A stretch of 64,000 nucleotides of DNA from NCBI GenBank assembly GCA_018303445.1, contig JAGVYE010000003.1:2366-66365 (forward strand), in the 5' to 3' direction. Every line of letters starts with the position of its first letter. Positions within the stretch are counted from its first letter, which is position 1. Positions 910 through 56,559 of the stretch are shown one piece after another. The translations under genes were made by a program, and so were the position numbers. The notes beneath the pieces are model-generated. The model was not told the origin of the DNA, did not search any database, and was given only the letters and a program-made list of their open reading frames with translations. The DNA comes from Candidatus Woesearchaeota archaeon. Its GTDB lineage: Archaea > Nanobdellota > Nanobdellia > Woesearchaeales > GW2011-AR9.

Positions 910-2138
910 TGAAAAAAACATTTTACATATTAGTACTGATGCTTTTAATGTCGGCGGTACTGGGCGAGCTTACCTTAACACTTGACAAAAGCCCGCCCCT
1001 TTATGATCGTGGCAGCAACAATAGGGTGGAAGTCAGCGTGAGCTGCGCGGTGGGAAACAGCAGTACCGTGCATATTCGCAATGCGGAAAATCCTTCGCGG
1101 TTAGTGTATATTGCCGTCGGAAATGGAACTTGGATAGTGAATTATAACACCTTCTCAGATTTAAGCGACGGGAGATATGTGCTTGAAGCTTTTTGCCAAG
1201 AAGGTTCAAATGCGACGGCAAACTTTTGCGTTAATGCAAATAATTGTTTGAATATACAAGGGCCGCCGGATCTTCCTCCCACGTGCAGCGATGGAATCAA
1301 GAATGGAAATGAAGGTTGCGATGATGGTGATACAAGCAATGGTGATGGCTGTTCTGCAACGTGTACAGTCGAATCGGGCTGGAGATGTACGGAAAATGCA
1401 GGCGGGCTTTCAACTTGTACTAGAGTAGGTGGCGGAAGAGGCGACGGAAGCGACGGTGGTGGAGACGGAGGCGGCGGTGATACTGGCAGAGATTCATCTT
1501 CTTCTGGATCTGGAAGCGGCCGCCGCAGGTGCACATCTTCCTGGAGTTGCGATGCCTGGGGATTATGCAATGCTACTTTAAAACAGTCGCGCACCTGCAC
1601 TGACGAAAATCAATGTGATCGAAAACCTCGAGTCGAGGCAAGATCTTGCACCAGCTGTCAAGAGTCGTGGGTATGTTCCCTGTGGAGCGAATGCCGTTCC
1701 GGTTCTCAGTATAGAACCTGTGATGATGAGTATAAATGCGGGACTTTTGTTCAAAGGCCGGAGACAGAGAAACGATGCGATGCGCCTACAGTAGGATTCA
1801 CTCCCCGCAAAATTTCAGAACCAGTGGCAGCGCCTCCTTCAACTTTTCCCCCTTTCGGACAAGAACCAGTCACACGACGGCCGCCAGCAGTTCCTCCAAG
1901 TTTCTTAAGCAAATATCAAAAATTTGCAGTTAGGGGCGGCATTGCTCTGGGAATATTAATTATTCTCGTCGTCATTATTGTTTTGTTTATCAAAAGGAAA
2001 GGTAAAGTAAATTCAGAACTCGCGGCTTGGATAGGACAGGCGCGTAGCGGAGGCAAATCCGATACGTATATTCGAAATGCGTTAGTGGATGAGGGATGGA
2101 CAGAAAAAGAGATTGAAAAGGCGTTGCGAAGGAATTAA
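906..2138 (+). CDS. Cys-rich surface protein: signal peptide, one Myxococcus-type CDDGN..DGCS repeat, Gly/Asp-rich linker, 2x W-x-C-x2-W-S-x-C 6-Cys module, Pro-rich stalk, C-terminal TM helix and conserved cytoplasmic tail
   Basis: N-terminal hydrophobic signal (MMKKTFYILVLMLLMSAVLG). Motif GCDDGDTSNGDGCSATC. Two copies of the SW.C..WS.C...Q.R.C.D...CG module. C-terminal hydrophobic stretch GIALGILIILVVIIVLFI, then tail ..SDTYIRNALVDEGWTEKEIEKAL. Confidence 0.75.
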   Translation: MMKKTFYILVLMLLMSAVLGELTLTLDKSPPLYDRGSNNRVEVSVSCAVGNSSTVHIRNAENPSRLVYIAVGNGTWIVNYNTFSDLSDGRYVLEAFCQEGSNATANFCVNANNCLNIQGPPDLPPTCSDGIKNGNEGCDDGDTSNGDGCSATCTVESGWRCTENAGGLSTCTRVGGGRGDGSDGGGDGGGGDTGRDSSSSGSGSGRRRCTSSWSCDAWGLCNATLKQSRTCTDENQCDRKPRVEARSCTSCQESWVCSLWSECRSGSQYRTCDDEYKCGTFVQRPETEKRCDAPTVGFTPRKISEPVAAPPSTFPPFGQEPVTRRPPAVPPSFLSKYQKFAVRGGIALGILIILVVIIVLFIKRKGKVNSELAAWIGQARSGGKSDTYIRNALVDEGWTEKEIEKALRRN

Positions 2139-2212
2139 TTTCTATCTTGCTGAAAAGAGTGCGTATTAAATCACCGCAAGATTTATATATTGTTGTATGA
2201 TTAATCATACAT

Positions 2213-2803
2213 ATGTATGGAAAAATTAAAATGACGGAAAACACCTTGCAGGTGTTATCTCTATTCACAAACGATTTTAAGAGAGAGTATTATATTCGGG
2301 AAGTTGAAAAATTGTTAAAAATAAGCCCGAGAACCGCCCAGCTTATTCTTGAAGATTTAGAGAATAAAGGAATAGTAGAATCAAAAACAAAAGGAAAAAT
2401 TAAAGCCTATAAGATCAATCCCAGCGAATTTACTAAAAAGTATCTTGTTTTTGCAGAGCAATATAAATCAATTGCATTTTTACAAAACAGGCTTTTAATT
2501 AAAGAGATTATAGACAAGATCACTCCGCAGGTTAAAGGAATGGGAATTATTTTTGGGAGTTATGTTAAAGGGCTGGAACAAGAAGGTTCTGATCTAGATG
2601 TGTTTGTTGCTGGAAATTATAACAAAGACGAGATAAAAGCAGTTTCCAGAAATTTAGGTGTAGAAATAAGTATCAAATGTTATCCCCTAAAAACATTTGA
2701 GAAAAATTTGGCTAAAGATATTCTCCTGAAGGAGATATTAAAAAATCATGTTGTTTTTATTAATGCAGAGCAATTTATACAAAAGGTATTCAAAAATGGA
2801 TAA
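2213..2803 (+). CDS. Nucleotidyltransferase (MNT/MntA-like) with N-terminal winged HTH; antitoxin-type partner of the downstream HEPN gene
   Basis: GSYVKG....SDLDVFV matches the GS-x9-DxD minimal nucleotidyltransferase motif. N-terminal HTH-like region. 8-nt overlap with the following HEPN ORF. Confidence 0.7.
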   Translation: MYGKIKMTENTLQVLSLFTNDFKREYYIREVEKLLKISPRTAQLILEDLENKGIVESKTKGKIKAYKINPSEFTKKYLVFAEQYKSIAFLQNRLLIKEIIDKITPQVKGMGIIFGSYVKGLEQEGSDLDVFVAGNYNKDEIKAVSRNLGVEISIKCYPLKTFEKNLAKDILLKEILKNHVVFINAEQFIQKVFKNG

Positions 2804-3275
2804 AATAAAATGGTGTGCTGGAAAGAAAGAAGGATTAAGTTTAATTGAGCCAAATTCAGATCTTACCAACGCTTACATTAAGAAAGCTGAAGAAGCTTTG
2901 GAATCTATGAGAGTGAATATTATCAAAGATTGGAAAATTTCAACGGCATACTATACAATTTACTTTTCGCTTTATGCCCTTCTTACAAAAATAGGGGTAA
3001 AATGTGAAATTCACTCTTGCACTATTGAATTCGCAAAAAAATTCCTTAAAGATTATTTTGAAGAGTCTGAGTTAAATTTTACTGAAGATTCCTTAAAAGC
3101 AAGAATTGATTCTCAATATTATATTGATAGAACCGTTCCAGATGAGCAATACCATAAGATGATGCGAAAAACTCCGGAATTCTTGGTTAAGTGCAAATCG
3201 ATTCTTATTAAATTGAATGAGAAGAAGATTAACGAGATAAGAGGCAAATTTCAAATAGCGAGTAACAGAAAATGA
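2796..3275 (+). CDS. HEPN-domain protein (HepT-like toxin partner of the MNT). Start moved to the internal ATG at 2796 (MDKIKW...), which overlaps the MNT stop
   Basis: All-alpha ~160 aa protein directly coupled to the MNT gene (ATGGATAA overlap). R-x(4-8)-H-like stretch (DRTVPDEQYH) near the C-terminus. Classic MNT-HEPN gene order. Confidence 0.55.
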   Translation: MDKIKWCAGKKEGLSLIEPNSDLTNAYIKKAEEALESMRVNIIKDWKISTAYYTIYFSLYALLTKIGVKCEIHSCTIEFAKKFLKDYFEESELNFTEDSLKARIDSQYYIDRTVPDEQYHKMMRKTPEFLVKCKSILIKLNEKKINEIRGKFQIASNRK

Positions 3276-3298
3276 AACGAAAGATGCTTTTCTCTTTA

Positions 3299-3451
3299 GC
3301 GAATGAATGACGGCGGGCCGTTCGCTCAGTGGTTTTCTGGCGGTAATCTCAATATAAAAATAAAATTTTTTATCAGAAGAAAACCAACTGTCAACAGATG
3401 CATAGCAATAGCAGTTCCTCGCAAGCATCTTGGCCTTGCCGTCATTCATGG
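3299..3451. repeat. Intergenic element flanked by a 12-bp perfect inverted repeat (atgaatgacggc / gccgtcattcat) with a nested imperfect IR (cagtggttttctgg / cagaagaaaaccaactg). Rod-like ~150-nt structure
   Basis: Direct reading of the sequence at 3301-3314 vs 3438-3451, and 3328-3341 vs 3375-3391. No ORF inside. Confidence 0.5.
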
Positions 3452-3721
3452 AGTTGAATAGTATCAGATTTAAGAGGTTGTTGCGAAACTCTTCATTAGT
3501 GCTGGTGAGAGGCTTGTTCCGCCTCTCAACTTCGCTCCGCTCAAGTCGAATTGCTGAACTCTACAAGGTTAGCTTCATTGGCAAATTATACCCCAGCACA
3601 GACTTTCGCAACAACCTCTAAATTTGGCATTATTGAAAAGTTCTCGTTTCACTTGTGGAGCACCAGCTACGACCTAGACTATTTCTTTGAAGGCTGACGT
3701 TCCCCGGATGGGGTAACCCCC

Positions 3722-3789
3722 CTTGTCAGCTTTATTTCATACTTCAAGTGGTCTCCGCAAGTGGTGCTCCAAACACTTTTCAATAACGC
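3722..3789 (+). repeat. 68-bp conserved intergenic element, copy A. 64/68 identical to copy B at 55765..55832. Ends 50 nt upstream of a + strand start codon
   Basis: cttgtcagctttatttcatacttcaagtggtctccgcaagtggtgctccaaacacttttcaataacgc. Contains a TTTATTT TATA-like box. A partial inverted partner lies at 3630-3667. Confidence 0.6.
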
Positions 3790-3838
3790 CCTAAATTTAG
3801 GAAAAATATATAAAGATTATTTTCTTGCTATCGTAGTG

Positions 3839-6724
3839 ATGTTTAAAAAAAGAGCGTGGATCATGGCGATTGTTTTAATTTTATTAAATTCAACTTTCTT
3901 GCTGGCTGATCATCAGTTAACAATTGGCTCTGTCGGCTGTCCAATTGGCGCTTCCAATCATTGCGTGGAAAATGCTTATTGTCCTTCTTCCGATTTTTAT
4001 GATGGCACAACTCGAATTGCCAGGCAAACGGTATGCACCGAAAAATTGATTAATTACCGACGTTGTAATGCAGATGAGCCTGCTGATCGGAGAGATCAAC
4101 AGTGCTTAGGAATTCTTAGAAATCCTAATCTTCCATTCTCAGCAACAACCAATCCTGTTGATCTGCAAAGCAGATGCCTGCCGGCGGAAACTGATCAGCG
4201 AGGAAATAACCCTCAATTAATTGCAGGACAATATTATTGCCTTCCTATCTATCGCGGACCTACACTTTTTCCTAGTTATGATGGCCAGCAGTGTTACAAC
4301 CAAGAACAATGTTCTAATGGCATTTGCGATCGCAAGGCTGATTTTGAAGATAAAAAAATTTGCCAGCGGGCCTTGATTTCGTCAGCCAACCATTTGGGAG
4401 GGGTCGCTCCTGACGTAACCATTCGCGGCGCCTGTTTTTTTGACCGCCAATGTTTTGGCTACGATCCTCAGAGTAATGCTGATGCCTGCGCTGGAGAAGA
4501 TCGCGCTGTCGTGCCTTACAGTCCGGGAGTTTGCCGTTTGCGGCAAGGACAACCCCAAATCGGGTTTACCATTCGTTCTGACCTTTGGGGAAATATTGAC
4601 GGGACGCCAGCAGCAGCTGATGCTACTAGAATTAGTGTTTATCGGGGAGAAACAATTGAATTAAACTGGAATGTTATGGCGGATACCGTCAACAGCGGTC
4701 CAGTTTCCTGCACGGGAATTAGCAATCCTCCAGGCCTCTGGACGTATTCTCTGCAAAACTGGGAGGACCGTTCCTTTGCGCCCTATCCTTTGCTATGGAG
4801 ACCAGAAACTCCTATTTCTCAGAGAATAGGGCCAATTACTCAGGATACGTCGTTTACCTTTTCTTGCACTAATAGGGAAAGTAGCACTCCCATTTCCAAG
4901 ACCGTACAGGTTACTTTGCGTCCAGTTTCTCCTCCCGCTTGCTCTGGGAATGAAAATAACTGTCTTTTAGCTCATTTGGATTTTGAACGGCCAGAAATAA
5001 ATGGTGAATCAGCTGGGAGACAAATATTTCCCGGCGGTCCTGAAAGCTCTTGCCGTTTTCCTCAAGTTTGCACGAGAAACAGGCTGGGAGAATATTTGCC
5101 CGGCAGATTGCAAGGAAATCCAACTCTAATACCTTCAATAGATTCAAACCAACCTGGACCTAGATTCTACCAATTGGATGGTGTTGATGATGTTGTTTCT
5201 CTTCCTTTAGATATCCGCGACCCGGTTTTTTCTAATGGAGTTACCGTTTCATTTTGGGTTAAGCCGGGAAGTAATAGAAATGAGGACTTATTGGTTTGGG
5301 CTGATTCTGTAGGCGGAAGAATTTTGAATATCCTTTTAAATCCTTCTTCAGGTGGCCAAATTATGACTGTGAGTGCAGGCGGTTTAGGCGGTATAATATT
5401 ATCCCCGTTTTATGGTTCACGATGGAATCAGGTTGTTTTCTCCATCCAGCCGCAGTCAAATCAGCAAACTCTAACTTATCGTGTTTATATCAATGGTCAT
5501 TTAAAGTTTGAAGGGACCCAATCAAATATTCTTTTTCAAACCGGAAAAATGCTTTTGTTTGGTGGGGTTCGTGATTTTTTAAATATCCCACCTTTCACTG
5601 GCAGCATAGATGAAATAAAAATATTTCGTGAAGCGCTGCCAATGAGGCAAATAGCTAATTTATATCGTACAGATGCACTTCAAAATCATAATTACTGGAG
5701 AGGATGTTTGGGAAAAGTGCCAAGTTCCCAGCTTTGTACTATCGAAGTTAATGGTGCAAACTTAGATGATCGTATTGTTACCAATTTGCTAGACAACCAA
5801 GGCCAGTGTCCAGCTACAGTTGGAAGTCGTAATCTTTGCCATGCTTACTGCCTGCCAGGTTATGTCGTCCAGCCAGGCAATAGTATCGGAGAATCCCGCT
5901 GTGTTCCGGAAGGGCAGCAGGATTTGGCTCCTCCAACAATTACCAGTCAACAAGCAACGGATATAACCTCTACTTCTGCTACCTTGCGAGTAATTACCAA
6001 TGAACCAGCAACTTGCAGATATGATCGTATTGATGGCGGTTCTTATAATTCGCTGATCAATCCATTTGCCACGACAGGAGGCACGAGCCATTCTTCTGTT
6101 ATTAACGGTTTAGAACCGCAGGGATACATTTATTTTTTTAATTGCCGGGATAATTTTGGCAATGTGCGCGCCCAAAATTATCAAATCTCATTTGTAATCC
6201 CAGTTGAAACCACTCCGATGCTCTATTATTGTTCCAGCGACCGTAATGAGCCTAATCAGGCCAACAATCCTCCTGCCGGAGGCGTAGGTTTGAGATATTC
6301 GGGATATAATACTCAAATTAGGGGCACTTCGAACATGGTTGATGGTATCTCCCAAACAGACGTTTGCGAATCAGCAACAGCCTTGCGTGAATTTTATTGC
6401 TGGTCAGCGAATGGACGATATATTAACCCAGATAGCGCCGCTGCTGGTTTATTACGATCGGAAGTAGTTAACTGCAATTGTCTTGAGGGCGCCTGCGTCA
6501 GCGCTCCGCCTCCAGCCGCGGCTTGCGGCGATATTGACGCCAATGGCATAATAAATATTGCTGATATTAACCGCCTGATTGCTCATGTAGTGAATCGACA
6601 ACCGCTTACTGCCGATGAACGGCTTAGGGCTAATGTTGACGGGGCTGGAGAGATTACTTTTGGAGATATTTTCCGGTTAATTGATAAGGTGATTAATCCA
6701 TTAACATCTTTGGTCTGCTCATAA
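3839..6724 (+). CDS. Large secreted protein: N-terminal signal/TM, Cys-rich region, LamG/ConA-like lectin domain, C-terminal dockerin (two Ca-binding repeats)
   Basis: Start set at MFKKRAWIMAIVLILL (the ORF-track start at 3761 lies inside the conserved 68-bp element). LamG-like stretch: VTVSFWVKPGS...WNQVVFS...YINGHL...GSIDEIKIF. Dockerin: GDIDANGIINIADINRLIAHV + ANVDGAGEITFGDIFRLIDKV. Confidence 0.75.
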   Translation: MFKKRAWIMAIVLILLNSTFLLADHQLTIGSVGCPIGASNHCVENAYCPSSDFYDGTTRIARQTVCTEKLINYRRCNADEPADRRDQQCLGILRNPNLPFSATTNPVDLQSRCLPAETDQRGNNPQLIAGQYYCLPIYRGPTLFPSYDGQQCYNQEQCSNGICDRKADFEDKKICQRALISSANHLGGVAPDVTIRGACFFDRQCFGYDPQSNADACAGEDRAVVPYSPGVCRLRQGQPQIGFTIRSDLWGNIDGTPAAADATRISVYRGETIELNWNVMADTVNSGPVSCTGISNPPGLWTYSLQNWEDRSFAPYPLLWRPETPISQRIGPITQDTSFTFSCTNRESSTPISKTVQVTLRPVSPPACSGNENNCLLAHLDFERPEINGESAGRQIFPGGPESSCRFPQVCTRNRLGEYLPGRLQGNPTLIPSIDSNQPGPRFYQLDGVDDVVSLPLDIRDPVFSNGVTVSFWVKPGSNRNEDLLVWADSVGGRILNILLNPSSGGQIMTVSAGGLGGIILSPFYGSRWNQVVFSIQPQSNQQTLTYRVYINGHLKFEGTQSNILFQTGKMLLFGGVRDFLNIPPFTGSIDEIKIFREALPMRQIANLYRTDALQNHNYWRGCLGKVPSSQLCTIEVNGANLDDRIVTNLLDNQGQCPATVGSRNLCHAYCLPGYVVQPGNSIGESRCVPEGQQDLAPPTITSQQATDITSTSATLRVITNEPATCRYDRIDGGSYNSLINPFATTGGTSHSSVINGLEPQGYIYFFNCRDNFGNVRAQNYQISFVIPVETTPMLYYCSSDRNEPNQANNPPAGGVGLRYSGYNTQIRGTSNMVDGISQTDVCESATALREFYCWSANGRYINPDSAAAGLLRSEVVNCNCLEGACVSAPPPAAACGDIDANGIINIADINRLIAHVVNRQPLTADERLRANVDGAGEITFGDIFRLIDKVINPLTSLVCS

Positions 6725-7132
6725 AAAGGTATGTATTAAGTCTGGGGCTTTAACATCAACCCGTGGGCCTTCTCGCCAATTAAGATCCAGCAAAAAGGGA
6801 ATTCATGAAATGTGAAAAATATCACATTTCAGTACTGAAAATAAATCTCTGTTTATTTTCATGTTCCAAAAGGAATTTTTGCCTTTGAGTTGCAACATCG
6901 CGTTCTCTAGGTTCGTGAAAATTGCTAAAATATCAAAAATCACTCAGAAAGTGAAATGTGCCCACATAGTTTACGACAAAAATAAATTATAAAGCAAGGT
7001 TATAAACTCTCGTTAAGGATTAATTCAGTTTCAACCAATAATCCATAGCTTATTTATGTCGCCAATTAACAAAAGAAAAAGTATATAAATGGCAAGATTT
7101 TCTCTTAAAGTTGAAAAAAAAGGATGAATTAG

Positions 7133-8572
7133 ATGAAGTTAAATGAGGTTAGTGCAAGTAAGAGTAAACTATCTCGCTCTGTTATTTCTGGCTCTCAGAT
7201 TTCTTCTTTCAAGAAAACAGGGCTGATAGTAATGATAGCAGTTGTGATTTTAGCCATAGGGTTCTCGTTTCTGTTTCCAGCTTCTAAGAAGGGACTGGCA
7301 GGGCGGGCATTCGGGGAAACTGTTGGTGGACCATCAATACCACTCACAAGTTGTGGTCTAATCACTGCGCCAGGAGTCTATACTCTTAACACTGTTCTTT
7401 CTGTCGCTGATTCCGCGTTATCAAATAATGCCTGCGTGACAATTACAGTTGATAACGTCGGCATTCGCTGCACTGCTGGAGGAGGATTTACGTTCACAGG
7501 AAGCAATCCGCTAGCAAAAGGAGTGCGTATCATGAATGTGAATGGTGTGGAAGGTGTTAAGGTGACAGGATGTCAGTTTCTTAGTTTTCCACAGCGCAGC
7601 ATAGAAGTTGAAGGCAGCAGCGGCATTGTTCTTAATGATAATGTCATTATACAATCGGGAAGTATGGGGCAGGGTATTTCTCTTTCAGCTTCACAACGTT
7701 TGTTAGTTGATAAAAATAAAATTTCTGCTCCTATAGGTCTGGCGATGGATAGTACCACGGAAAGTGTTGTCAGCAGGAACATTATTCGCGCGGCACAGAC
7801 AGGAATCTCCGTTGGGCAAGGAAGCAGCATGAATTCTTTTTTTGAGAACACTGTTTCTGGCAGGCAAGCAGGAATAACCGTTGCGGCAACGGATAAAAAT
7901 GATTTTTATCTTAATGTTATCTCCGGAAGCCCGGTAGGGATATCTTTTAGCGGCTCGACAAATACTGGTTTCGGCCAGAATACTTTATGCGGGAATTTTC
8001 AAAATGGGGTGGCCTGCACAAGTACTCCTCCAACTACCTTTAGCGGCGGCAGTGGTAATTTTCTGACGGGAAATAGTTGTTCTAGTTTAGTAGGGGCTTC
8101 TTTTAGTGATTGTCCCAATCCTGCGGTTACTCTTTGCGGCAATAGTTGGGTTGATAATGGCGAACAATGTGATGATGGAAATACTGTCGGAAATGACGGC
8201 TGTTCAAGCACGTGTCAGAATGAACAACCTTCCTTCTCTTGCGCCACTCCTGCCCCAAATAATTCTGATCCTTGCGCTAATCGCGCTAATCCAACTACTG
8301 CCAACACTCCCAATGTTCTGTTTGCTACTTGCCCAACAACTAATGTTCCTGCTTGCAGTTATAGTTGCCGAAGTAATTTTCGATTAAATGCAGGAGTGTG
8401 TGAAGCTGTTCCCGCAGGTTTACCGGCTTGCCATGTACTTAAACAGAGGTGTGATACAAATGAAAAAATTATTATTGATGTTGGCATTATTGCTCCTTCC
8501 TTTTGCTTTAGCAGATATTTCCATAACTTGTTCTCCATCCTCAGTTCAACCAGGCGAAGCTGTGAATTGTAA
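7133..8572 (+). CDS. Membrane-anchored surface protein with a right-handed parallel beta-helix (PbH1-type repeats) and one Myxococcus-type Cys-rich repeat
   Basis: N-terminal TM (LIVMIAVVILAIGFSFLF). Repeating G-x-x-V/I-x-x-N-x-I/V units (NVIIQSG.., NIIRAAQTGISV.., NVISGSPVGISF..). CDDGNTVGNDGCSSTCQ motif. The 3' end overlaps the next gene by ~110 nt in another frame. Confidence 0.65.
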   Translation: MKLNEVSASKSKLSRSVISGSQISSFKKTGLIVMIAVVILAIGFSFLFPASKKGLAGRAFGETVGGPSIPLTSCGLITAPGVYTLNTVLSVADSALSNNACVTITVDNVGIRCTAGGGFTFTGSNPLAKGVRIMNVNGVEGVKVTGCQFLSFPQRSIEVEGSSGIVLNDNVIIQSGSMGQGISLSASQRLLVDKNKISAPIGLAMDSTTESVVSRNIIRAAQTGISVGQGSSMNSFFENTVSGRQAGITVAATDKNDFYLNVISGSPVGISFSGSTNTGFGQNTLCGNFQNGVACTSTPPTTFSGGSGNFLTGNSCSSLVGASFSDCPNPAVTLCGNSWVDNGEQCDDGNTVGNDGCSSTCQNEQPSFSCATPAPNNSDPCANRANPTTANTPNVLFATCPTTNVPACSYSCRSNFRLNAGVCEAVPAGLPACHVLKQRCDTNEKIIIDVGIIAPSFCFSRYFHNLFSILSSTRRSCEL

Positions 8573-9947
8573 CGCAGCTACTACGACTACGTTAAATAAT
8601 GTTGGCAGGTTAAGCTTTACAGTTAATCCCGGAACCTTATTTGAGATTACTAGCACATCTGGCCTTGCAGGAGTGACTTTTAATCCCGCTAATGGCATTG
8701 GAACCTATACCAATGCTCAAGGCATTAATTTTAATGCTAATGCGGTATTATTTACAATTAATTTACGCGCTAAAACTGGAGTTCAAGGCAGCGAATCGAT
8801 TTCATTTAGCCGATTTATCGTAAGAGATCTTACTCCCGCAGATATTAACTTTGGCACTGTAAGAAATTCGAATATGATCACTGTTGGTTCTGCTGACCGT
8901 GCTTGTTCAGAAGCAGATTGGTGTGGTCCATGGGGCACTTGTCCTGCTGGAACTCAAACTAGAACTTGTAACACGCCTGCAGGTGCAGCTTGTACTAGCG
9001 GTGTGACTGCTGAACCAGCAGAAACGCAATCTTGCACTCCAAGTTGCGCTGGAGTTGCGGATGGCGCAGCTTGTACTTTAAGCGGCGCTGCCGGCACTTG
9101 TCAAAGTGGTGGTTGTCAGACAGTACCTGGAACTTGTACTGCTCGCGCCACAACTTGTAATGTAGCTGGTGTTGATTGTCCTAATGGTCCAACTGGAACT
9201 CCTGTTCGTGTTAACCGAATAATTTGCCCTAGCGAAACTCCTTGTAATCCGACAACTGGATTATGTCAAGCAGTTGCATGTACTGCTCGCGCCACAACTT
9301 GTATTCAGGCAGGTGTTAGTTGCCCCTCTGGTTCATCTGGTGCTGCTGTTACAGTAGCTCAAGTAGTTTGCAGTGATGCAACTCCTGTTTGTAATACTAT
9401 AACTGGTTTATGTGAAGCCGCTCCTGCCTGTATTGACGCAGATAATGATAGGTATTACCCTGGAGAGTTTAGTACTCAATGCTTTATAACTGGCCAACCT
9501 TTGGGTTTTGGAGATTGCAATGATAATAATCCTCTCATTCATCCTAGCGATAATGAATTGATTTGTAATGATGGATTAGATAATGATTGCAATGGTTTCA
9601 CTGATTGCGCAGATGTCTTGGCTTGCGTTCGTTTAGCTTGTGTAACCGGCGGAGTTGCCGGAACTTGCCAAAATAATGGTATTTGTCAACCGCCTGCTGG
9701 TCGTGGAGCAACAAGTTGCACTGAAGGTCAATCCATAACTGGAACACCGTCTTGTAATTGTGATGCAAAAGTTATTTCCGGAGCAACTTATCAGCGTCAT
9801 GAAATTGGCGGACAATGCACCCTTCTGCTGGGCAAAATTAAAGCCGAATTTGAATCATCGCGTAATGCTTTGCAAAAAATGGTGAATATGGCGCGGTTGC
9901 TGCGTTGTTACATTTCCAGTACCAGAGCAACTTGCATGGAACAATAA
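8460..9947 (+). CDS. Secreted Cys-rich protein: signal peptide, N-terminal Ig-like (possibly cohesin-like) domain, W-C-W module, 2x A-T-C-x-x-A-G-V-x-C-P...V-C-S..T-P-x-C-N-x-x-T-G-L-C-E repeats, conserved GQCTLLL..IK C-terminus
   Basis: Start moved to MKKLLLMLALLLLPFALA (signal peptide). Paralogous in its N- and C-terminal segments to 12269..13822. Confidence 0.65.
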   Translation: MKKLLLMLALLLLPFALADISITCSPSSVQPGEAVNCNAATTTTLNNVGRLSFTVNPGTLFEITSTSGLAGVTFNPANGIGTYTNAQGINFNANAVLFTINLRAKTGVQGSESISFSRFIVRDLTPADINFGTVRNSNMITVGSADRACSEADWCGPWGTCPAGTQTRTCNTPAGAACTSGVTAEPAETQSCTPSCAGVADGAACTLSGAAGTCQSGGCQTVPGTCTARATTCNVAGVDCPNGPTGTPVRVNRIICPSETPCNPTTGLCQAVACTARATTCIQAGVSCPSGSSGAAVTVAQVVCSDATPVCNTITGLCEAAPACIDADNDRYYPGEFSTQCFITGQPLGFGDCNDNNPLIHPSDNELICNDGLDNDCNGFTDCADVLACVRLACVTGGVAGTCQNNGICQPPAGRGATSCTEGQSITGTPSCNCDAKVISGATYQRHEIGGQCTLLLGKIKAEFESSRNALQKMVNMARLLRCYISSTRATCMEQ

Positions 9948-9951
9948 GATC

Positions 9952-12240
9952 ATGAAAACTACTGCTGAAGATAATCTGGACCATTCTAAAATAAAGAATG
10001 AAAAGAAAGGGCAGGCAAATCAGAAATTAGTAGTAATCAGTATCTTTGCAGTAGTATTATTAGGAGCGCTGATAGTGTTATATTTCTTTACGGACACTTT
10101 TGTGGGAAGAGCGTTTCAAACTGGAATTAGGAATTCTGCCGGATTGGATTTCAGCGGCGGAATAGAAAATCTGCCTTTAAATGACGAGGGAACTTATCCT
10201 CTTAAAGCTAATGTTGATCAAGCCGTGAGAATCAATGCGATTAATTTTGTGATGAAGTATGATTCTGCCAAGTTATCAGTTAATAATTGCCAGCAGCGAG
10301 TTCAGCAAACTTTAGATAGTTATTTTAATTATAATCTCATTAATGATTTATCCTTAATACGAGAAGTTTCCTGTGATCCAGCAGGAAAAATAACGGTTAA
10401 TTATGTTTTTGCCTGTGATCCAACCAACAATTGCAATAATTTACCGGCTCCTGCTGCCTCCGGAGATATTTTCTTGGCAATATTTCTTTTTACTGGCATT
10501 GCGGCAGGAACTGCGGACGTTTATTTTGAATCATTAGACATTTATGATGTTAATTCACTGCCTGGAACTACGGCAGTTTCATTAAATTCTCCGACGAGAA
10601 CTAGCCCGGATAGAATTACTGTACGTCAGACTACGGAAACTGTTGATCAATCACTAGCTTGCACTAGTTCTAATGACTGTTCGACAGGACAAACATGCAG
10701 CGGCGGTATTTGTATTTCACCCCGTTGCGGCAATGGCGTACTTGAAGTAATAGAACAGTGCGATGATGGAAATACTGCTGGAGATGACGGCTGTTCTTCA
10801 ACCTGTCAAATTTATGAAGCAGGATGGCTATGTAATACACCCGGTCAGCTCTGCCAAAAATTATGCGGCAATGGGGTTGTTGAAGTTGCAGCTAGTGAAT
10901 GGTGTGATGATGGAAATAATGCCAATGGCGATGGCTGCACTCGTACTTGTCAAATGGAGAACGGATATGTTTGTCCAAGAAGAGGCGGAGTATGTATTTT
11001 AAGTACACAGGCTTGCGGCGACGGAGTAGTGCAAGTTGGTGAATATTGCGATGATGGAAATGCCGCTTCAAGTGATGGCTGCGCAGCTTGTCAAATTGAA
11101 AATGGATATACTTGCAGTGGCAGCCCTTCTGCTTGTGTTCGTATGGGGGAGACCACTTATATAAATTTTTGTGGCGATGGAATAATCCAAGACAATGGCG
11201 GGAATGGAATTGCCGGAGATATCGATGATGAACAATGTGATGACGGCAATCGAAATGATAATGATGCTTGCACTAATATTTGCCGCACTGCCTTTTGCGG
11301 TGATGGAGTTGTCAGAGCTGGAACAGAACAATGCGATGACGGCAATCGAAATGATAATGACGCTTGCACTAATATTTGCCGCACTGCCTTTTGCGGCGAT
11401 GGAGTTGTCAGAGCTGGAACAGAACAATGTGATGACGGCAATATGGTAAATACTGATGGCTGCACCACTCAATGTCGTACAAATGTTTGCGGTGATGGAA
11501 TTGTTTGGATAAGAACAGAATATTGCGATGATGGCAATCTAGTGAATGACGATGGTTGTTCAAGTACCTGTCAAATTGAGTTAATAGGCCGCTGCGGTGA
11601 TGGAACAGTTAACCCTAATGAACAATGTGACGATGGGAATCAAAATGATAATGACGCTTGCACTAATATTTGTCGCACTGCCTTTTGCGGCGATGGAGTT
11701 GTCAGAGCTGGAACAGAACAATGTGATGACAGCAATCCTGCAAATTATGATGATTGTACCAATGAATGTCGTATTGCCGTTTGCGGTGATGGAATTACCA
11801 GAGCTGGAACAGAACAATGTGATGATAGGAATACTATTACTGAAATATGTGCTTATGGTCAACGATCGTGTACTGTCTGTAATAATCAATGTCAATCTGT
11901 TGCTGGCGCAGCGACGTATTGTGGTGACGGAATTATACAAACGGGTGAACAGTGCGATGATGGAAATGCAGTTCTTGGTGATGGATGTTCAGCAACGTGC
12001 AGCGTAGAATCTAGTGGTGCTGGGTTATTGGGCGATGTAAATGGCGATGAGGTTGTAGATTTAGCTGATGCTATTGATGTTGCCAGATTTGATTTAGGTA
12101 TTTCGACTAGTCTAACATTCAATGCAGCGCGGGGAGATGTGACCTGTAATAATGGAGCAGTAGACATTGCTGATGCTATACTTATTGCCAGGGTTGATTT
12201 AGGAATTCCTGGATTTAATATCCCTAATTCCTGTTCATGA
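9952..12240 (+). CDS. Scaffoldin-like surface protein: N-terminal TM anchor, Ig/cohesin-like domain, ~14 Myxococcus-type Cys-rich repeats (C-x-DGN-x6-C-x3-C), C-terminal dockerin
   Basis: TM: VVISIFAVVLLGALIVLYFF. Repeats: CDDGNxxxxDxC(T/S)xxC..CGDG. C-terminal dockerin: GDVNGDEVVDLADAIDVARFDLG + GDVTCNNGAVDIADAILIARVDLG. Confidence 0.75.
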   Translation: MKTTAEDNLDHSKIKNEKKGQANQKLVVISIFAVVLLGALIVLYFFTDTFVGRAFQTGIRNSAGLDFSGGIENLPLNDEGTYPLKANVDQAVRINAINFVMKYDSAKLSVNNCQQRVQQTLDSYFNYNLINDLSLIREVSCDPAGKITVNYVFACDPTNNCNNLPAPAASGDIFLAIFLFTGIAAGTADVYFESLDIYDVNSLPGTTAVSLNSPTRTSPDRITVRQTTETVDQSLACTSSNDCSTGQTCSGGICISPRCGNGVLEVIEQCDDGNTAGDDGCSSTCQIYEAGWLCNTPGQLCQKLCGNGVVEVAASEWCDDGNNANGDGCTRTCQMENGYVCPRRGGVCILSTQACGDGVVQVGEYCDDGNAASSDGCAACQIENGYTCSGSPSACVRMGETTYINFCGDGIIQDNGGNGIAGDIDDEQCDDGNRNDNDACTNICRTAFCGDGVVRAGTEQCDDGNRNDNDACTNICRTAFCGDGVVRAGTEQCDDGNMVNTDGCTTQCRTNVCGDGIVWIRTEYCDDGNLVNDDGCSSTCQIELIGRCGDGTVNPNEQCDDGNQNDNDACTNICRTAFCGDGVVRAGTEQCDDSNPANYDDCTNECRIAVCGDGITRAGTEQCDDRNTITEICAYGQRSCTVCNNQCQSVAGAATYCGDGIIQTGEQCDDGNAVLGDGCSATCSVESSGAGLLGDVNGDEVVDLADAIDVARFDLGISTSLTFNAARGDVTCNNGAVDIADAILIARVDLGIPGFNIPNSCS
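11233..11814 (+). repeat. Tandem 96-bp (32-codon) repeats inside 9952..12240. Three copies are almost identical at DNA level (11233-11328, 11329-11424, 11623-11718) and others are diverged
   Basis: Repeat unit caatgtgatgacggcaatcgaaatgataatga(t/c)gcttgcactaatatttgccgcactgccttttgcgg(t/c)gatggagttgtcagagctggaacagaa. Confidence 0.85.
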
Positions 12241-12268
12241 AAAGGTGTTCATGAAAAGGTGAAATAAA

Positions 12269-13822
12269 ATGGTGCAAAGAAAATTTAAATCTTGGATGAT
12301 CATTGGTTTATTCATTTTAATGCTTCCCATAGCGGCCGCGGTTAATTTTAATGTAAATTGTCCTGCTTCATCTCTTTCTGGTCAAAGTTTTACCTGTCAA
12401 GTAAATATGCCGACGCCTCTGGCATCAGGTCTTTCATCATTGAGTTTTACTGCTAATGCTGGCGGAGCAACTATTGCCGTAACTTTTCCCCAAGGCACCA
12501 CGGTCAGCAGTGGCGGCACGTATGGTTTTTTTACTCCTACGCCAGTAACTAATTCTAATCCTTTAGCCTCCGTGCAAATAACTCCTATTACTGGCCAAAC
12601 CTCTGTAACATTACAATTGACTGGTGTGCGAGGACGATTGGGAGATAATACTTTACTTCTTCCTGCAAATCCAGCGCCAAATAATATTGCATTTAATAGT
12701 CCAACAGTAACTATTGGCTCTACTTGTACGTCAACAGGAAATGCAGAAACTAGTTGTAATGGAATAGATGATGATTGTGATGGCAGTGTTGATGAAAATT
12801 TCGTTGGAACGTCTACCACTTGCGGAGTAGGAGTCTGCGTTGCAACTGGATTGACAACCTGTCCGAGAGCTTCAGGTCAAACAACTGTAGGCAATAGCTG
12901 TACTCCTAGAACTCCAATAGCTGAAGTTTGCACTGACAGTTTAGATAATGATTGCGATGGAACGGTTAATGAGGGTTGTACTGTTTGTGTTCCTCGTGAT
13001 CCCACTGCCTGCACAACTGGTGTTGAATGTCCAAGCGGGAATAGTCTTCCAGCTTTAGGCTGTTCTAATGGTCAAAGTTGTCAGGGAAGTCCGGCTAGTT
13101 GTCAACCAACAGCAGCAGGAAATAATCTGCCGGTAGCAGAAGATGATACTTTTACCGTTGTTTTAGGAGCTGGTGCTGGCAGTCTAGAAACTACTTTTAA
13201 TGTTTTAACTAATGATCGAGATCCAGATAATGATGCTTTACGTATTACCAGCACCACTCAACCGGCTAATGGTTTAGTTTCTTTGCCATCAAACCGAAGA
13301 ATTTCTTATCGCAGCAACGCTGGATTTACAGGGACAGATTCATTTACTTACACTATCAGCGATGGCCGCGGCGGAACAGCTACGGCTACGGTAACGGTGA
13401 CAGTGAGTTCTTCTTTAACTTGCACTTTTCGCGCCGCAACTTGCAGTCAAGCAGGTGTTAATTGTCCTGATGGCTCTGGCGGCGAACCTGTTAGTATTGA
13501 CCGGGTAGTTTGCAGCGGTGTAACTCCTTTTTGTAATACTAAAACTGGCTTATGTGAAACTGGCTGTGCGGAAGGAACCTTGTTAGCAGATCCACCTGTG
13601 TGTACTTGTGTTGCTCCTTTGCAGAATGTTGATGGTGTTTGTAAATGTCCTCCTTCAGCAGGAAGGGCTCAGCATCTGGTGAGAGGGCAATGCACACTTT
13701 TACTTACAGAAATTAAAGATTCTTTAGAAAACGATCAGCAATATAGCGGAATAATGCAGAAAGTTTCCCGTATCGCTGAAGCGTTGAAGAATTTCCTGAG
13801 GGCAGTTCATTTAATTAATTAA
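12269..13822 (+). CDS. Secreted Cys-rich protein, paralog of 8460..9947: signal peptide, Ig/cohesin-like N-domain, Cys-rich region, C-terminal conserved GQCTLLLTEIK helix
   Basis: Signal: WMIIGLFILMLPIAAA. N-terminus NVNCPASSLSGQSFTCQVN parallels SITCSPSSVQPGEAVNC in the paralog. Shares the CTFRAATCSQAGVNCPDG...VVCSGVTPFCNTKTGLCE module. Confidence 0.65.
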   Translation: MVQRKFKSWMIIGLFILMLPIAAAVNFNVNCPASSLSGQSFTCQVNMPTPLASGLSSLSFTANAGGATIAVTFPQGTTVSSGGTYGFFTPTPVTNSNPLASVQITPITGQTSVTLQLTGVRGRLGDNTLLLPANPAPNNIAFNSPTVTIGSTCTSTGNAETSCNGIDDDCDGSVDENFVGTSTTCGVGVCVATGLTTCPRASGQTTVGNSCTPRTPIAEVCTDSLDNDCDGTVNEGCTVCVPRDPTACTTGVECPSGNSLPALGCSNGQSCQGSPASCQPTAAGNNLPVAEDDTFTVVLGAGAGSLETTFNVLTNDRDPDNDALRITSTTQPANGLVSLPSNRRISYRSNAGFTGTDSFTYTISDGRGGTATATVTVTVSSSLTCTFRAATCSQAGVNCPDGSGGEPVSIDRVVCSGVTPFCNTKTGLCETGCAEGTLLADPPVCTCVAPLQNVDGVCKCPPSAGRAQHLVRGQCTLLLTEIKDSLENDQQYSGIMQKVSRIAEALKNFLRAVHLIN

Positions 13823-13859
13823 TGGGGTTAGTTTATGAGGGTGAAGATGAGGTTAGTTT

Positions 13860-16331
13860 ATGAAAGTGAAGAGAATAAAAAAAGGCAAGCATAGTGTTTT
13901 ACGGTACAAGTCATTGCCTCCTCACACCAATGAAGCAGTTCCTGTTACACATCTGGGAGAAGTAAGCAAACCTTTTATTATTGTTGCCATTACTATTGCT
14001 GCTATTGTTTTGTTAGCGGTATTCTTAATGTTTAAAGATCAGATTGTTGGAAAAGCGTTTTTTGTGGCTGGTGTAGTAGATACAGCAGGCATCGCAAATC
14101 CTGGTTCAGTTTTGGAGAATACGCCTTTTTCTTTGCTGGTTAGAGCTAACATTGGAACGAAAGAAACAACAGGCATAGAATTTGAATTTCCTTTGCCTAC
14201 AGGATTACGTTGCCGAGTGGCAAATCCAATTGAGAATTTGTTGGGATGGAATGCCCAAAATGGGGCGCTGCTAGAGGAAGCAACGTGCGTGAATAACGTG
14301 GTGCATTTCCGTTATCTTACCGTGAATGGGCAAGAAGCGAAGAGAGGAGAGTTTGATATTGCACGAATTCATGTTGAAGGCGCAGCGGCAGGAACATACA
14401 CTTCAACTTTCCGTCTTTTTAATATTATTAATCTTGCTACTCCTCAAGGCGATATCATTAGCAATGGGTTGGTTGATCCTCTCGTTGTACGACAAGTGGG
14501 ATTCTGTCAGGATAATAGCCAATGCCAGCAAGGAGTATGTAATACGCAAACGAATCGATGTGCGCAATGTGTTGCTGATGCGCAATGCAGTGGAACTACG
14601 CCGATTTGTAATACCCAAACTAACCTGTGTGAAGCTCGTGCGCCTGCCTGTGGCAATCAGCAAATTGATGTAACAGAACAATGCGATGATGGTAATACTG
14701 CAAATGGAGATGGTTGTTCAAGCACTTGTCAAAGAGAAGCACCTCCAGAAATAACTTATCGCGTCAATTGTCCTCAAGATAATATTTCTATAGGTCAAAC
14801 AACAACGTGTGAAATTATTTTAAATCAGGCCGTAACGGAAACATACGGAGAACAATTTACGATTTCCGCTCCTGGATTTACGGCAGCAACTCCATTTATT
14901 GAAGGTGTTACAGGTATTACTGCATCTTCGGCAGGAATTGGAGGAACAACCCTTCTCGTTGAAAGTGATCACTTAACGAGCCGAGGTCAAGCGGCAGGTG
15001 TCGTGGCTCGGTTTACACTTCGCGCGGGAAATGCGGGAGGAATATACACAGTCTCTTTGAGCAACTTAGTCTTGGGAAGTTCTGCTACTTCTGATATGAT
15101 AACAATTTTAGCAGCGGAAAGAGAATGCAGCGCAACTAATAAAGCAGCATGCCAAGATCGAACATCATGCGAAGCTACACTTGTCGGCGGATATTGGTAT
15201 AATAATCAATGCAATACCCAACCGGAATGCCGCGTCAATAATTTAGCTGGCTGTCGAACACAAGCACAGTGTGAAGCGACAGCTATTGGCGGCCGATGGA
15301 ATGCGGCAACAAGCACCTGCAGTGCAGCGCCAACATGCAGCCCAACTAATCTGGCTGTGTGCACACAAACAAACTGTGTTACTGTTGGTCAAGGAGTTTG
15401 GAATACAACGGCAAGCAGCTGTGATACAGCAGTTGAAATTTGTAATGATGGACAAGATAATGATCAAGATACTCAAGTAGATTGCGTCGATACGGAATGC
15501 AGAGGAAGAGCCGGTGCCAATGGCGCTCTCTGTTGCCAAGCAGTAGCTGATTGTCGAGAAGGACAAGAGTGTCAAGCAAATCAGTGTAGAACGGTAACAA
15601 TCCAAACAACAACAACTTCTTCGTCTGGCGGAGGCGGTGGCGGAGGAGGCGGAGGCGGTGGTTGCGTTTCCAATTGGCAATGTGATCTTTGGAGTTACTG
15701 TAACTCTACTTTGCAGAAATCGCGAACTTGCATAGATTTGCGAAAATGTATCCAAAAGCCAAAATTAGAAGTTCAATCCTGTCCTGCTTGTGAAGAATCA
15801 TGGTTGTGTACGTCGTGGAGTCAATGTTTTGGCAGTACAAAAACGAGAACGTGTACTGATGAGCATAAATGTGGAACGTTGCGGCTAAAACCATCAGAGC
15901 AGCAGCAATGCACACTTCCAAGTTCGCAATTGCCTGTGCAACAGGTACAGCAGCCTCAACAGTTTTATGTGCCTCCCCCTTCAGTTCCATATCAAGCTCC
16001 ACAAGTACAAAAGCCAAGCGTCTTTAGGCAATATCAAACGTGGTTTATCAGTGGGGCTTCTCTCTTACTTTTAGTTATAATCTTAGGCCTGGTCTGGCGT
16101 TTAACTCATCGTCCTCAGCAACTGGGTTATAATATCGGTGAATTGAAAGAATGGATTAAACAAGAACAAGCAATGGGAACTTCAAACGAAGACATTAAAG
16201 AAATCCTCTCTGATAAAACGGGATGGACAAAAGAAGAAATTGAAAAGGCCTTTGAAAGTTTAGGAAGCGCGCTCACAGAAGAACAACTTCAATCTTCAGA
16301 AGAACAAATCATGGAAATAGGGGGGAAATAA
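13860..16331 (+). CDS. Giant membrane-anchored surface protein: N-terminal signal anchor, Ig-like domain, Myxococcus-type Cys-rich repeats, poly-Gly linker, 2x W-C-W 6-Cys module, Gln/Pro-rich stalk, C-terminal TM and conserved cytoplasmic tail
   Basis: TM1: FIIVAITIAAIVLLAVFLMF. Motif CDDGNTANGDGCSSTCQ. Linker SSSGGGGGGGGGGGG. Modules CVSNWQCDLWSYC.. and CEESWLCTSWSQC... TM2: ISGASLLLLVIILGLVW. Tail: NEDIKEILSDKTGWTKEEIEKAFESLG. Confidence 0.75.
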   Translation: MKVKRIKKGKHSVLRYKSLPPHTNEAVPVTHLGEVSKPFIIVAITIAAIVLLAVFLMFKDQIVGKAFFVAGVVDTAGIANPGSVLENTPFSLLVRANIGTKETTGIEFEFPLPTGLRCRVANPIENLLGWNAQNGALLEEATCVNNVVHFRYLTVNGQEAKRGEFDIARIHVEGAAAGTYTSTFRLFNIINLATPQGDIISNGLVDPLVVRQVGFCQDNSQCQQGVCNTQTNRCAQCVADAQCSGTTPICNTQTNLCEARAPACGNQQIDVTEQCDDGNTANGDGCSSTCQREAPPEITYRVNCPQDNISIGQTTTCEIILNQAVTETYGEQFTISAPGFTAATPFIEGVTGITASSAGIGGTTLLVESDHLTSRGQAAGVVARFTLRAGNAGGIYTVSLSNLVLGSSATSDMITILAAERECSATNKAACQDRTSCEATLVGGYWYNNQCNTQPECRVNNLAGCRTQAQCEATAIGGRWNAATSTCSAAPTCSPTNLAVCTQTNCVTVGQGVWNTTASSCDTAVEICNDGQDNDQDTQVDCVDTECRGRAGANGALCCQAVADCREGQECQANQCRTVTIQTTTTSSSGGGGGGGGGGGGCVSNWQCDLWSYCNSTLQKSRTCIDLRKCIQKPKLEVQSCPACEESWLCTSWSQCFGSTKTRTCTDEHKCGTLRLKPSEQQQCTLPSSQLPVQQVQQPQQFYVPPPSVPYQAPQVQKPSVFRQYQTWFISGASLLLLVIILGLVWRLTHRPQQLGYNIGELKEWIKQEQAMGTSNEDIKEILSDKTGWTKEEIEKAFESLGSALTEEQLQSSEEQIMEIGGK

Positions 16332-51815: not shown

Positions 51816-52853
51816 ATGAATCATTTAGGTACAAAGATTATGGAAGCCCTTCAAGGGCTCGATAAAGTATATGCTCCGATAAAAGCTGAATTAGGCGCCT
51901 TGGAACATAAAATAACTGCAGGACGCCAGTCTGTGGAAGACTTACAACGTTACGGAGAACTTGACTTTGCCTGTAGGCCTTTTTTAGAAGTAGTTGAAGG
52001 GCTAATATTTGTACAAGAGCTCATGAAAGAAGCGGGTGATAAAGTATTCAACAGAGAACTTGTTTTAGAAGCAGAAAGATATTTAGCTAAAACTTCTGAC
52101 ATTCTCTTACAACACAGCTTCTCACAACCATATGATTCTCATAATGCTGTTTTAACTCTTGAGATTGGGCAAGGAAAAGGCGGTTTAGAAAGAGTTTTAC
52201 GAGATTTGATTGGGGCTTATGATAAATTTACTGCGAGAAAAGGCTTAAGTCTAGATGAGGTTGAAGTCGGTGATAGCTATGACCGAACAATTAGGGTTAT
52301 AGGAAGAAATTCTTATGGCCTCTTCAGAACAGAGCATGGTGTCCATCGTTTTATTTATTATGTTGCAGATGGAAAGAAACAAACAGGGTTCATAACTGTT
52401 ACAGTAGTACCTGAAATAGAAAATCCTGAAATCGTTCTGAATGAAAAGGATCTTAGGTATGAGTTCCTTAAAGCTACAGGGCCTGGCGGTCAACATAATC
52501 ATAAAAATGCGACTGCGGCACGTATTACACATCGTCCTTCGGGCTTATCTGCCATTGCTCGCTCACGTTCCCGTGCACAAAGTATCGCCAGTGCTAAAGC
52601 AGTCTTAACTTCGAGAGTTCAACAATTATCAACTTCTTCTCGAGACGGTCTTCTAGAAAGTTTTCCTCCTCGAATAGATCCAAGCTATGGAAGTTGTCGT
52701 ACACGAACATACGATTTTACAGGTAACTTTATTAGAGATGACCGATCGGAGGTTCTCTCTACAGATATAGATGCTTTTTTCAAAGGAATTATAGATCCTT
52801 TTATTTACGCTGCTCATGGTATTCCTTTTTCCGTAGGTTTGAACAGTTTGTAA
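51816..52853 (+). CDS. Bacterial-type class-I peptide chain release factor homolog (RF-1 domain with GGQ). No PxT/SPF decoding motif
   Basis: EFLKATGPGGQHNHKNATAARITHRPSG matches the bacterial RF1/RF2 GGQ region. RTRTYDFTG matches RNRTYNF. Domain-2 region reads YYVADGKKQTGFITV where RF1 has PAT and RF2 has SPF. Confidence 0.65.
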   Translation: MNHLGTKIMEALQGLDKVYAPIKAELGALEHKITAGRQSVEDLQRYGELDFACRPFLEVVEGLIFVQELMKEAGDKVFNRELVLEAERYLAKTSDILLQHSFSQPYDSHNAVLTLEIGQGKGGLERVLRDLIGAYDKFTARKGLSLDEVEVGDSYDRTIRVIGRNSYGLFRTEHGVHRFIYYVADGKKQTGFITVTVVPEIENPEIVLNEKDLRYEFLKATGPGGQHNHKNATAARITHRPSGLSAIARSRSRAQSIASAKAVLTSRVQQLSTSSRDGLLESFPPRIDPSYGSCRTRTYDFTGNFIRDDRSEVLSTDIDAFFKGIIDPFIYAAHGIPFSVGLNSL

Positions 52854-53090
52854 GACGGATGCTGTTCAAGGAACGAGTGATTTAAGCTGAAGTTCTCATT
52901 TTCTTAGTAAAAAAGAAGAGGGTGAGAGGCAACTATGAACCAACACACCCCCTTCTTTTTGAGAAAATAATCAAAAATCATTCACGGATTGAACAGCATC
53001 TTCTTTTTGGGGTTCTCTTCTAAAACCAGAAGTTTTTTATATCTCACAATTTTATTTCTTTAAAAAAAGTTAGGAATAAAAGGTGAAGAT

Positions 53091-55760: not shown

Positions 55761-55764
55761 TGAT

Positions 55765-55832
55765 CTTGTCAGCTTTATTTCATACTTCAAGTAGTCTCCG
55801 CAGTTGGTGCTCCCAACACTTTTCAATAACGC
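55765..55832 (+). repeat. 68-bp conserved intergenic element, copy B (see 3722..3789). Ends 47 nt upstream of the FKBP start codon
   Basis: cttgtcagctttatttcatacttcaagtagtctccgcagttggtgctcccaacacttttcaataacgc. Confidence 0.6.
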
Positions 55833-55878
55833 TTCGCAAAGAAAAGGCTTATAAAGTTTCCTAAAAAATCGAGCTTCT

Positions 55879-56559
55879 ATGGGAGAAATAGTGTATCATC
55901 ACGATTTTATTGAAATAGATTATACTGGAAAACTCTTAGATGGTATGGTATTTGACACTACTGATGAGAGTATCGCAAAAAAAAATAATCTTCATTCAGA
56001 AAAAGCAGTATATACGCCTTCCGCGATCTGTGTAGGAGAAAAACAAATTCTTCCTGGTTTGGATGAGCAGCTCGAAGGGAAAGAAATTGGAAAGCATTAT
56101 ACCGTTAAGTTACAGTCTGAAAAAGCTTTTGGCAAACGAGACATAAAAAAGATGCGTATCGTGTCCATGAGTACATTTAAAGAACATGATGTCCAACCTC
56201 AGTCGGGGTTACAAATTGATGTGGATGGAGAATTGGGAATTATTGCTCGAATTTCTGGAGGGCGGATCATTGTTAACTTTAATCACCCTCTTGCCGGGAA
56301 AGAAGTGACCTATGAATTTGTCATGAGAAGGAAAATTACAGAGACGGCAGAAAAAATAACGGCTTTCTTCCATACTTTGTTCAAAATTCCTCAAGAACAA
56401 ATTACGGTTGAAATTAAAGAAGGCCAGGCGGCGGTAAAAATACCAGTAGCTTTTCCTCATGAAATTGCTGAAGCAATTGGAAAAAAAGTCACAGAATTAG
56501 TGACAGAGGTGAAAAGCATCGAGATAAAAGCAGCCAAAGAAGAAAAAACTTCTTCATGA
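55879..56559 (+). CDS. FKBP-type peptidyl-prolyl cis-trans isomerase (archaeal long FKBP/SlyD-like with IF insert)
   Basis: DFIEIDYTGKLLDGMVFDTT, GLDEQLEGKEIG, NHPLAGKEVTYEF are FKBP-fold signatures. Confidence 0.8.
   Translation: MGEIVYHHDFIEIDYTGKLLDGMVFDTTDESIAKKNNLHSEKAVYTPSAICVGEKQILPGLDEQLEGKEIGKHYTVKLQSEKAFGKRDIKKMRIVSMSTFKEHDVQPQSGLQIDVDGELGIIARISGGRIIVNFNHPLAGKEVTYEFVMRRKITETAEKITAFFHTLFKIPQEQITVEIKEGQAAVKIPVAFPHEIAEAIGKKVTELVTEVKSIEIKAAKEEKTSS

Follow-up and report, generated by a model that had tools for sequence, protein, structure and literature searches.

A 68-bp sequence that occurs twice in the window, by which we mean the whole 64,000-nucleotide stretch of DNA analysed here, very probably belongs to a MITE family (non-autonomous DNA transposons) found in DPANN archaea of the Woesearchaeota/Nanoarchaeota type, with one intact copy (copy A) and one remnant (copy B). 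The assignment follows from the combination of terminal inverted repeats, a flanking duplication of fixed length and locus-specific sequence, small size, absence of coding sequence and occurrence at many unrelated sites. The original prediction had matched positions 3722-3789 to 55765-55832, and the two indeed align without gaps at 64 of 68 positions. The repeat unit exceeds these 68 bp, which form the right part of a 165-bp element. Among the explanations first offered, the remnant of a dispersed repeat was the correct one. In a search for repeats across the whole window, the pair (family D8, 94%) was the sole non-coding dispersed repeat.

That two similar stretches arose by chance or through faulty assembly, with no biological unit behind them, is scarcely credible. 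The window does hold only two copies; against such a reading, the 68-mer found no match in any of 100 window shuffles, identical sequences are present in 7-10 contigs drawn from assemblies and runs that were deposited separately, and related copies occur in other genomes. We consider this explanation refuted.

Anatomy of the intact copy and its relatives

Copy A and the sequence that flanks it comprise the following features.

3618-3625, no strand: left 8-bp target-site duplication CTAAATTT, identical to 3791-3798
3626-3790, + strand: complete putative MITE, copy A, 165 bp, recognised by inverted repeats, hairpin fold and family profile
3626-3641, + strand: left terminal inverted repeat GGCATTATTGAAAAGT, 16 nt, nearly invariant across copies
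3656-3665, + strand: left inner (subterminal) inverted repeat TGGAGCACCA, conserved in the family
3692-3730, + strand: central conserved core, a conserved alignment block with the stem GCTGAC/GTCAGC around CGTTCCCCGnAGGGG...CCCCCTTG
3762-3771, + strand: right inner inverted repeat TGGTGCTCCA, partner of the left inner repeat
3775-3790, + strand: right terminal inverted repeat ACTTTTCAATAACGCC, the 16-nt partner of the left end
3791-3798, no strand: right 8-bp target-site duplication CTAAATTT, identical to 3618-3625

The terminal arms of copy A (3626-3641 and 3775-3790) are 94% complementary over 16 nt, with ends reading GGCRTTATTGAAAAGT, and the inner arms (3656-3665 and 3762-3771) are 100% complementary over 10 nt, separated from the terminal repeats by 14 nt on the left and 3 nt on the right. 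The "partial inverted partner" ascribed to this copy in the original prediction is therefore real, as is the direct repeat that it reported on both sides. The body of the element is largely palindromic around a conserved core of G/C runs, and copy A is predicted to fold into one long hairpin (RNA -64 kcal/mol, z = -7.0; DNA z = -6.9), with a z of about -7 on either strand. Exchanges of A-T for C-G pairs are seen in the core stem in the alignment of ten copies. Against the family profile, copy A matches positions 1-164 with E = 4.5e-43, and it aligns end to end with nine copies from other contigs. Its flanking duplication agrees at all 8 positions (P = 0.0003 under the positional null), and the empty site reconstructed for it reads ...CAACCTCTAAATTTAGGAAAAATA...

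Further copies, which the original prediction had proposed to look for by genome-wide search, are present in other archaeal MAGs and in one metagenome. Using a pattern that joins the inner and terminal repeats, we found full-length copies in three archaeal GTDB MAGs among the representative archaeal MAGs, namely L003 and L004 in one MAG, L009, and L010, the last labelled Nanoarchaeota. A slightly wider pattern located the element in 16 contigs of the metagenome Ga0209541; in about 10 of these it is severed by the contig end, as is expected of assemblers at multi-copy repeats. Altogether, the element-bearing MAGs are the window's genome, CAYJVI01, CAZOPZ01, JAUYQE01 and bins of Ga0209541. An end-to-end alignment of ten full copies, 163-166 bp long, shows nearly invariant terminal repeats, with the inner repeat, GGAGCACC, spaced 14 nt from the terminal repeat in the left arm and 3-4 nt in the right arm. 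The sequences flanking the copies resemble neither one another nor the window. All copies are intergenic, none lying inside a long ORF, and reading the ten-copy alignment revealed no conserved reading frame. Identity is 98% within one metagenome lineage or MAG and 67-83% between organisms, which fits recent bursts in each lineage.

The window itself carries an archaeal 16S rRNA gene, an intron-bearing tRNA and the start of a 23S rRNA gene, and its FKBP protein has homologues labelled by their sources as Woesearchaeota, Nanoarchaeota or Nanoarchaeia. The G+C content is 37-44%. Several Woesearchaeota/Nanoarchaeota-type lineages with very small genomes have this MITE family, with its defined ends and 8-bp duplication, in common.

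We take the Sulfolobus elements SM1-SM4 to be comparable archaeal MITEs. In DPANN genomes MITEs are dense, one Woesearchaea genome holding 105 per Mb (PMC11602168). The present element resembles these and other prokaryotic MITEs, including those of the archaeal census (PMC11602168), in being short (about 165 bp), non-coding, intergenic and multi-copy, with terminal inverted repeats, a short duplication, a hairpin-forming body and no transposase of its own. No family with ends GGCRTTATTGAAAAGT turned up in the literature that could be searched. The element constitutes a new sequence family within a well-known class, which may or may not be among the 18,091 archaeal MITEs of the published census (PMC11602168).

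Target-site duplications, presumed mobility and the truncated copy

The ten full copies have flanking 8-mers that agree at 8, 8, 8, 8, 7, 6, 6, 6, 6 and 1 of 8 positions, so that nine of ten match at 6-8 positions. Equally spaced 8-mers at random places in the same loci gave a mean of 2.1 matches, with P(>=6) = 0.008. The four perfect duplications all differ (CTAAATTT, TATGAGAA, AAGCCGTA and AAGAACAC); the copy without a flanking duplication (1 of 8) is L025, which is full-length. It is from these duplications and from the differing locations of the copies, not from direct sight, that we infer mobility.

In the mechanism we envisage, a DDE-type transposase encoded elsewhere would bind both ends of the element and excise or copy it, the element would be joined to target DNA cut at points staggered by 8 bp, and filling of the gaps would yield the 8-bp direct duplication. 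On this reading copy A is an insertion into CTAAATTT that has stayed intact, immediately ahead of the putative Laminin_G_3 core promoter, and the intact right end of copy B lies just upstream of the putative FKBP promoter.

Both window copies recur base for base elsewhere in the population, copy A in all 7 and copy B in all 10 of the contigs fetched for it, these contigs representing several deposited assemblies and sequencing runs. Look-ups with the FKBP and a 175-aa protein revealed no empty site among these 7 and 10 contigs, and both copies appear to be fixed in the population. The relatives returned by the FKBP search were rejected as sources of empty sites, being too distant or not syntenic; the nearest (62-66% identical) do not share the upstream gene order of the window. 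Once its transposase is identified, the family could be used to trace recent transposition among such uncultured archaea, a use that rests on the contrast between 98% identity within a lineage and 67-83% between lineages.

Copy B comprises the following features.

55747-55833, + strand: copy B, putative right-end MITE remnant of 87 bp (nhmmer, profile positions 76-163, E = 1.2e-10)
55758-55760, + strand: TGA stop codon of the P-type ATPase gene, inside the MITE remnant
55818-55833, + strand: right terminal inverted repeat of copy B, ACTTTTCAATAACGCT, with 1 mismatch, the last base being changed

The nhmmer profile was built from the ten full copies; by blastn, the closest of these, L016, matches copy B over 55743-55833 at 86%. 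In copy B the left arm is missing, the central core has decayed and the right end is intact, and no flanking duplication is recognisable. The remnant overlaps the P-type cation ATPase gene (53091-55760, from the ORF and Pfam domains), whose last four codons and TGA fall within it. We also considered copy B as a full, decayed element reaching into the ATPase gene, and rejected this candidate. Local alignment of the left arm to the sequence upstream of copy B stayed at background level with nothing significant. A 10-mer, GGCGTTATTG, does occur at 55663, at roughly the distance expected for the left arm, and a global alignment of the left arm to the ATPase region was marginal, equalled by 0.35% of null windows in a comparison chosen after the 10-mer had been spotted. 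We treat the match at 55663 as chance because the stretch, as read, encodes the last transmembrane helix of the ATPase. We see copy B as an old insertion, now without its left arm, whose decayed core supplies the last codons and the stop of the ATPase gene, a concrete case of a MITE remnant providing the stop codon of a host gene. Other remnants comprise 61 nt of the left end in L013, abutting a stop codon, and 44 nt of the right end in L021.

Hairpin conservation and distance to start codons

The original prediction had suggested a covariance analysis, and the alignment bears pairing out. In the ten copies, 94.7% of the cells at the 47 predicted pairs are standard pairs, compared to at most 50% when the partners are slid, and both partners have changed in 15 pairs, where the slid controls gave 3-7. 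The inner repeat of L009 has changed throughout, on both arms in concert, to GGTGCTGCC and GGCAGCACC. Such pairing of the arms is expected if both ends have to fit one transposase or if the DNA palindrome matters, and pairing alone does not demonstrate an RNA.

These stems bear on the reading of the element as a mobile structured-RNA gene (a small RNA or a processing or termination signal) that transposition merely spreads, which we judge very improbable. It would accommodate the strong fold on both strands (z about -7), the stems kept by compensatory changes and a core, CGTTCCCCGnAGGGG...CCCCCTTG, that is conserved across subfamilies only 67-83% identical overall. Seven representative copies also show 29 G-U against 10 A-C cells; counted by column, this excess is 15 against 9 and not significant (p = 0.26), and the count is biased since the structure was predicted on that strand, so the imbalance does not point to a strand-specific RNA. 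Moreover, the orientation of copies to the transcription of the upstream gene is mixed (5 sense, 3 antisense), and copy B lacks the hairpin yet is identical in 10 population contigs. Rfam 15 gave nothing at gathering score near either copy, a permissive Rfam search of 3200-3900 yielded chance-level matches only (E >= 0.1), and ARAGORN detected no tRNA at either copy. The small-RNA gene of the original prediction is accordingly left without positive support, its hairpin being what a palindromic transposon is expected to form.

A purely parasitic reading of the MITE does not account for its conserved central core. It is conceivable, if unlikely, that the C4-GnA-G4...C5 core and the kept hairpin mark a transposon-borne functional RNA or DNA signal that has been spread through Woesearchaeota-type genomes by a DPANN transposase family not yet described; such a signal could be, for example, a processing, termination or protein-binding hairpin.

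A second alternative to the MITE reading takes the repeat as a cis-regulatory module, with TTTATTT as a TATA box and a structured 5' leader for the downstream gene. The original prediction had proposed such a shared promoter and 5'-UTR module, noting a TTTATTT box in each copy and a nearby start codon on the + strand. Both observations hold: GCTTTATTTCAT is present in copies A and B, copy A ends at 3790, 48 nt before the ATG at 3839, and copy B at 55833, 45 nt before the ATG at 55879, in the same direction. A start codon likewise lies 43-59 nt from the end of several other copies. Across the family, the placement before starts is only part of the picture, as copies lie about equally often after gene 3' ends (L004, L016, L017, L022, L027, L028) and in either orientation, the gene-proximal end being the left arm in L003, L023 and L018 and the right arm in L010, L025 and L015. 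In addition, TTTATTT is confined to the subfamily of the window and L016, with unrelated sequence in its place in the others, and the downstream genes have TATA-like boxes of their own, both outside the element, between it and the gene.

3805-3814, + strand: putative TATA-like box AATATATAAA of the Laminin_G_3 gene (ATG 3839), at -34 from the ATG
55848-55855, + strand: putative TATA-like box CTTATAAA of the FKBP gene (ATG 55879), at -31 from the ATG

In the closest relative found, CTTATAAA likewise precedes the FKBP gene by about as much. Where a window gene has an intergenic upstream region, a TATA-like box in most cases begins 29-34 nt ahead of the ATG, a position that suggests mostly leaderless mRNAs in the window. 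This box reads TTTATATA, with variants, and is often preceded by AAAG or AATC (for example at 2213, 24735, 50476 and 57845). Compared to the archaeal core promoter (BRE and TATA box) of leaderless mRNAs, the element is similar in carrying an A/T-rich TTTATTT upstream of genes and differs in that this motif is not conserved in the family and that the genes' boxes stand at the usual distance outside it. With copies in mixed orientation and position, TTTATTT restricted to one subfamily and the genes having TATA-like boxes of their own, the promoter and 5'-UTR module is not supported, and we hold it to be highly improbable.

The closest FKBP relative found, L046 (66% identical), also bears on the distance to the start codon. 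Positions 1-1239 of this locus are an unrelated IS with a DDE_Tnp_1 transposase and ends CAGTATCTCCGAAGG, which stops 45 nt before the FKBP ATG, the same distance as copy B. The distance hence marks the edge of the promoter and is not a property of the element. Insertions land, or are tolerated, next to compact leaderless-type promoters and not inside them. The similar ATG distances of copies A and B reflect insertion up to the core-promoter edge and not a function of the element, and mobile elements stack at the upstream edge of such promoters. For annotation, the 68-bp "conserved upstream element" is not to be taken as a regulon signal or a small-RNA gene.

Transposase affiliation and neighbouring elements

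We searched for an autonomous relative of the MITE at several levels, and none with matching ends emerged from the window, the fetched loci or a viral collection. Within the window, the 16-bp end with up to 3 mismatches occurs only at the three MITE ends, and no fetched locus contains inverted end pairs 0.7-3.5 kb apart. In the viral collection the strict end pattern had 0 matches, and the bare 16-mer had 108 single matches, about the chance expectation; among the 80 of these 108 loci that were checked, none had an inner repeat or a real partner end. A blastn search of the element against plasmids gave no match. In L021 the right end runs on into non-MITE sequence as far as the contig extends, and a 40-aa reading frame beside this end has no homologue. 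Two other features were also set aside: the sequence common to L015 and L016, considered as an IS, proved to be a GTPase gene, and a 20-nt inverted pair at 46027/47447 is a chance match within ordinary genes. The only transposases observed near copies belong to other families with other ends, an rve-type IS in L013 and the DDE_Tnp_1 IS in L046.

Compared with GGCACTGTTGCAAAGT, which we take to be the terminal end of IS26, the element end GGCATTATTGAAAAGT is alike at 13 of 16 positions. The IS6/IS26 family likewise produces an 8-bp target duplication (PMC7986276) and has ends starting with GG. With the published 14-bp consensus end of IS6, GGTTCTGTTGCAAA (PMC6807381), the element end agrees at 9 of 14 positions. 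A G at position 7 is present in all but one bacterial IS6 member and in many archaeal ones (PMC6807381), whereas the element has A at this position in every copy and so lacks this defining feature. Set against the full IS6 end (GG, G7 and TTGCAAA at positions 8-14), the element has the GG, a partial match in TTGAAAA, and A7. ISfinder lists only two IS6-derived MITEs (PMC7986276), and those catalogued for IS6/IS26 are MITEBth2 and MITEHarch3 (PMC7986276, PMC6807381). No IS6-type transposase was found near any copy. The combination of an 8-bp duplication with GG ends also fits ISL3, IS1595, IS256/ISM1 and ISH6, and the element may derive from IS6 or from one of these.

Several further elements were observed in the window and the fetched loci. 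A second palindromic element in intergenic DNA, about 160 nt long with arms of 23 nt (TTAAGAGGTTGTTGCGAAACTCT and AGACTTTCGCAACAACCTCTAAA; fold z = -6.8), directly adjoins the MITE at 3466-3625; the end of its right arm (3600-3622) overlaps the duplication CTAAATTT at 3618-3625. It has no further copies in the window or any fetched locus and is possibly a MITE itself, the first having inserted into its end. A third such element, of about 150 nt, lies at 52854-53004 between the release-factor and ATPase genes, with 41-nt arms that are 71% complementary and a fold z of -5.8. In L013, a 973-bp IS (3272-4244) has ends TGTCTARGTYCATWGGATWTGTCACC and a split integrase-core (rve) gene. The 16-bp direct duplication on either side of it is identical to the MITE terminal repeat ACTTTTCAATAACGCC, indicating that the IS went in exactly at a MITE end; the duplication is unusually long. 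A 171-bp non-coding block at 6728-6899 of the window recurs at 8825-8996 of L016, a contig of another organism, at about 97% identity between unrelated flanks; sharply bounded from GTATGTATTAAGTCTG to GAGTTGCAACA and without terminal inverted repeats or an Rfam match, this block could be a further dispersed element or else a conserved gene for a small RNA.

Among the genes of the window, a bacterial-type peptide chain release factor (PCRF and RF-1 domains) is encoded at 51816-52853 in this archaeal genome. The region 1283-14733 contains several large genes with many diverged coding repeats of 60-230 nt that bear a cysteine-rich motif, CDDGN...DGC; these genes adjoin the Laminin_G_3 gene, and neighbouring genes match Pfam DUF4215.
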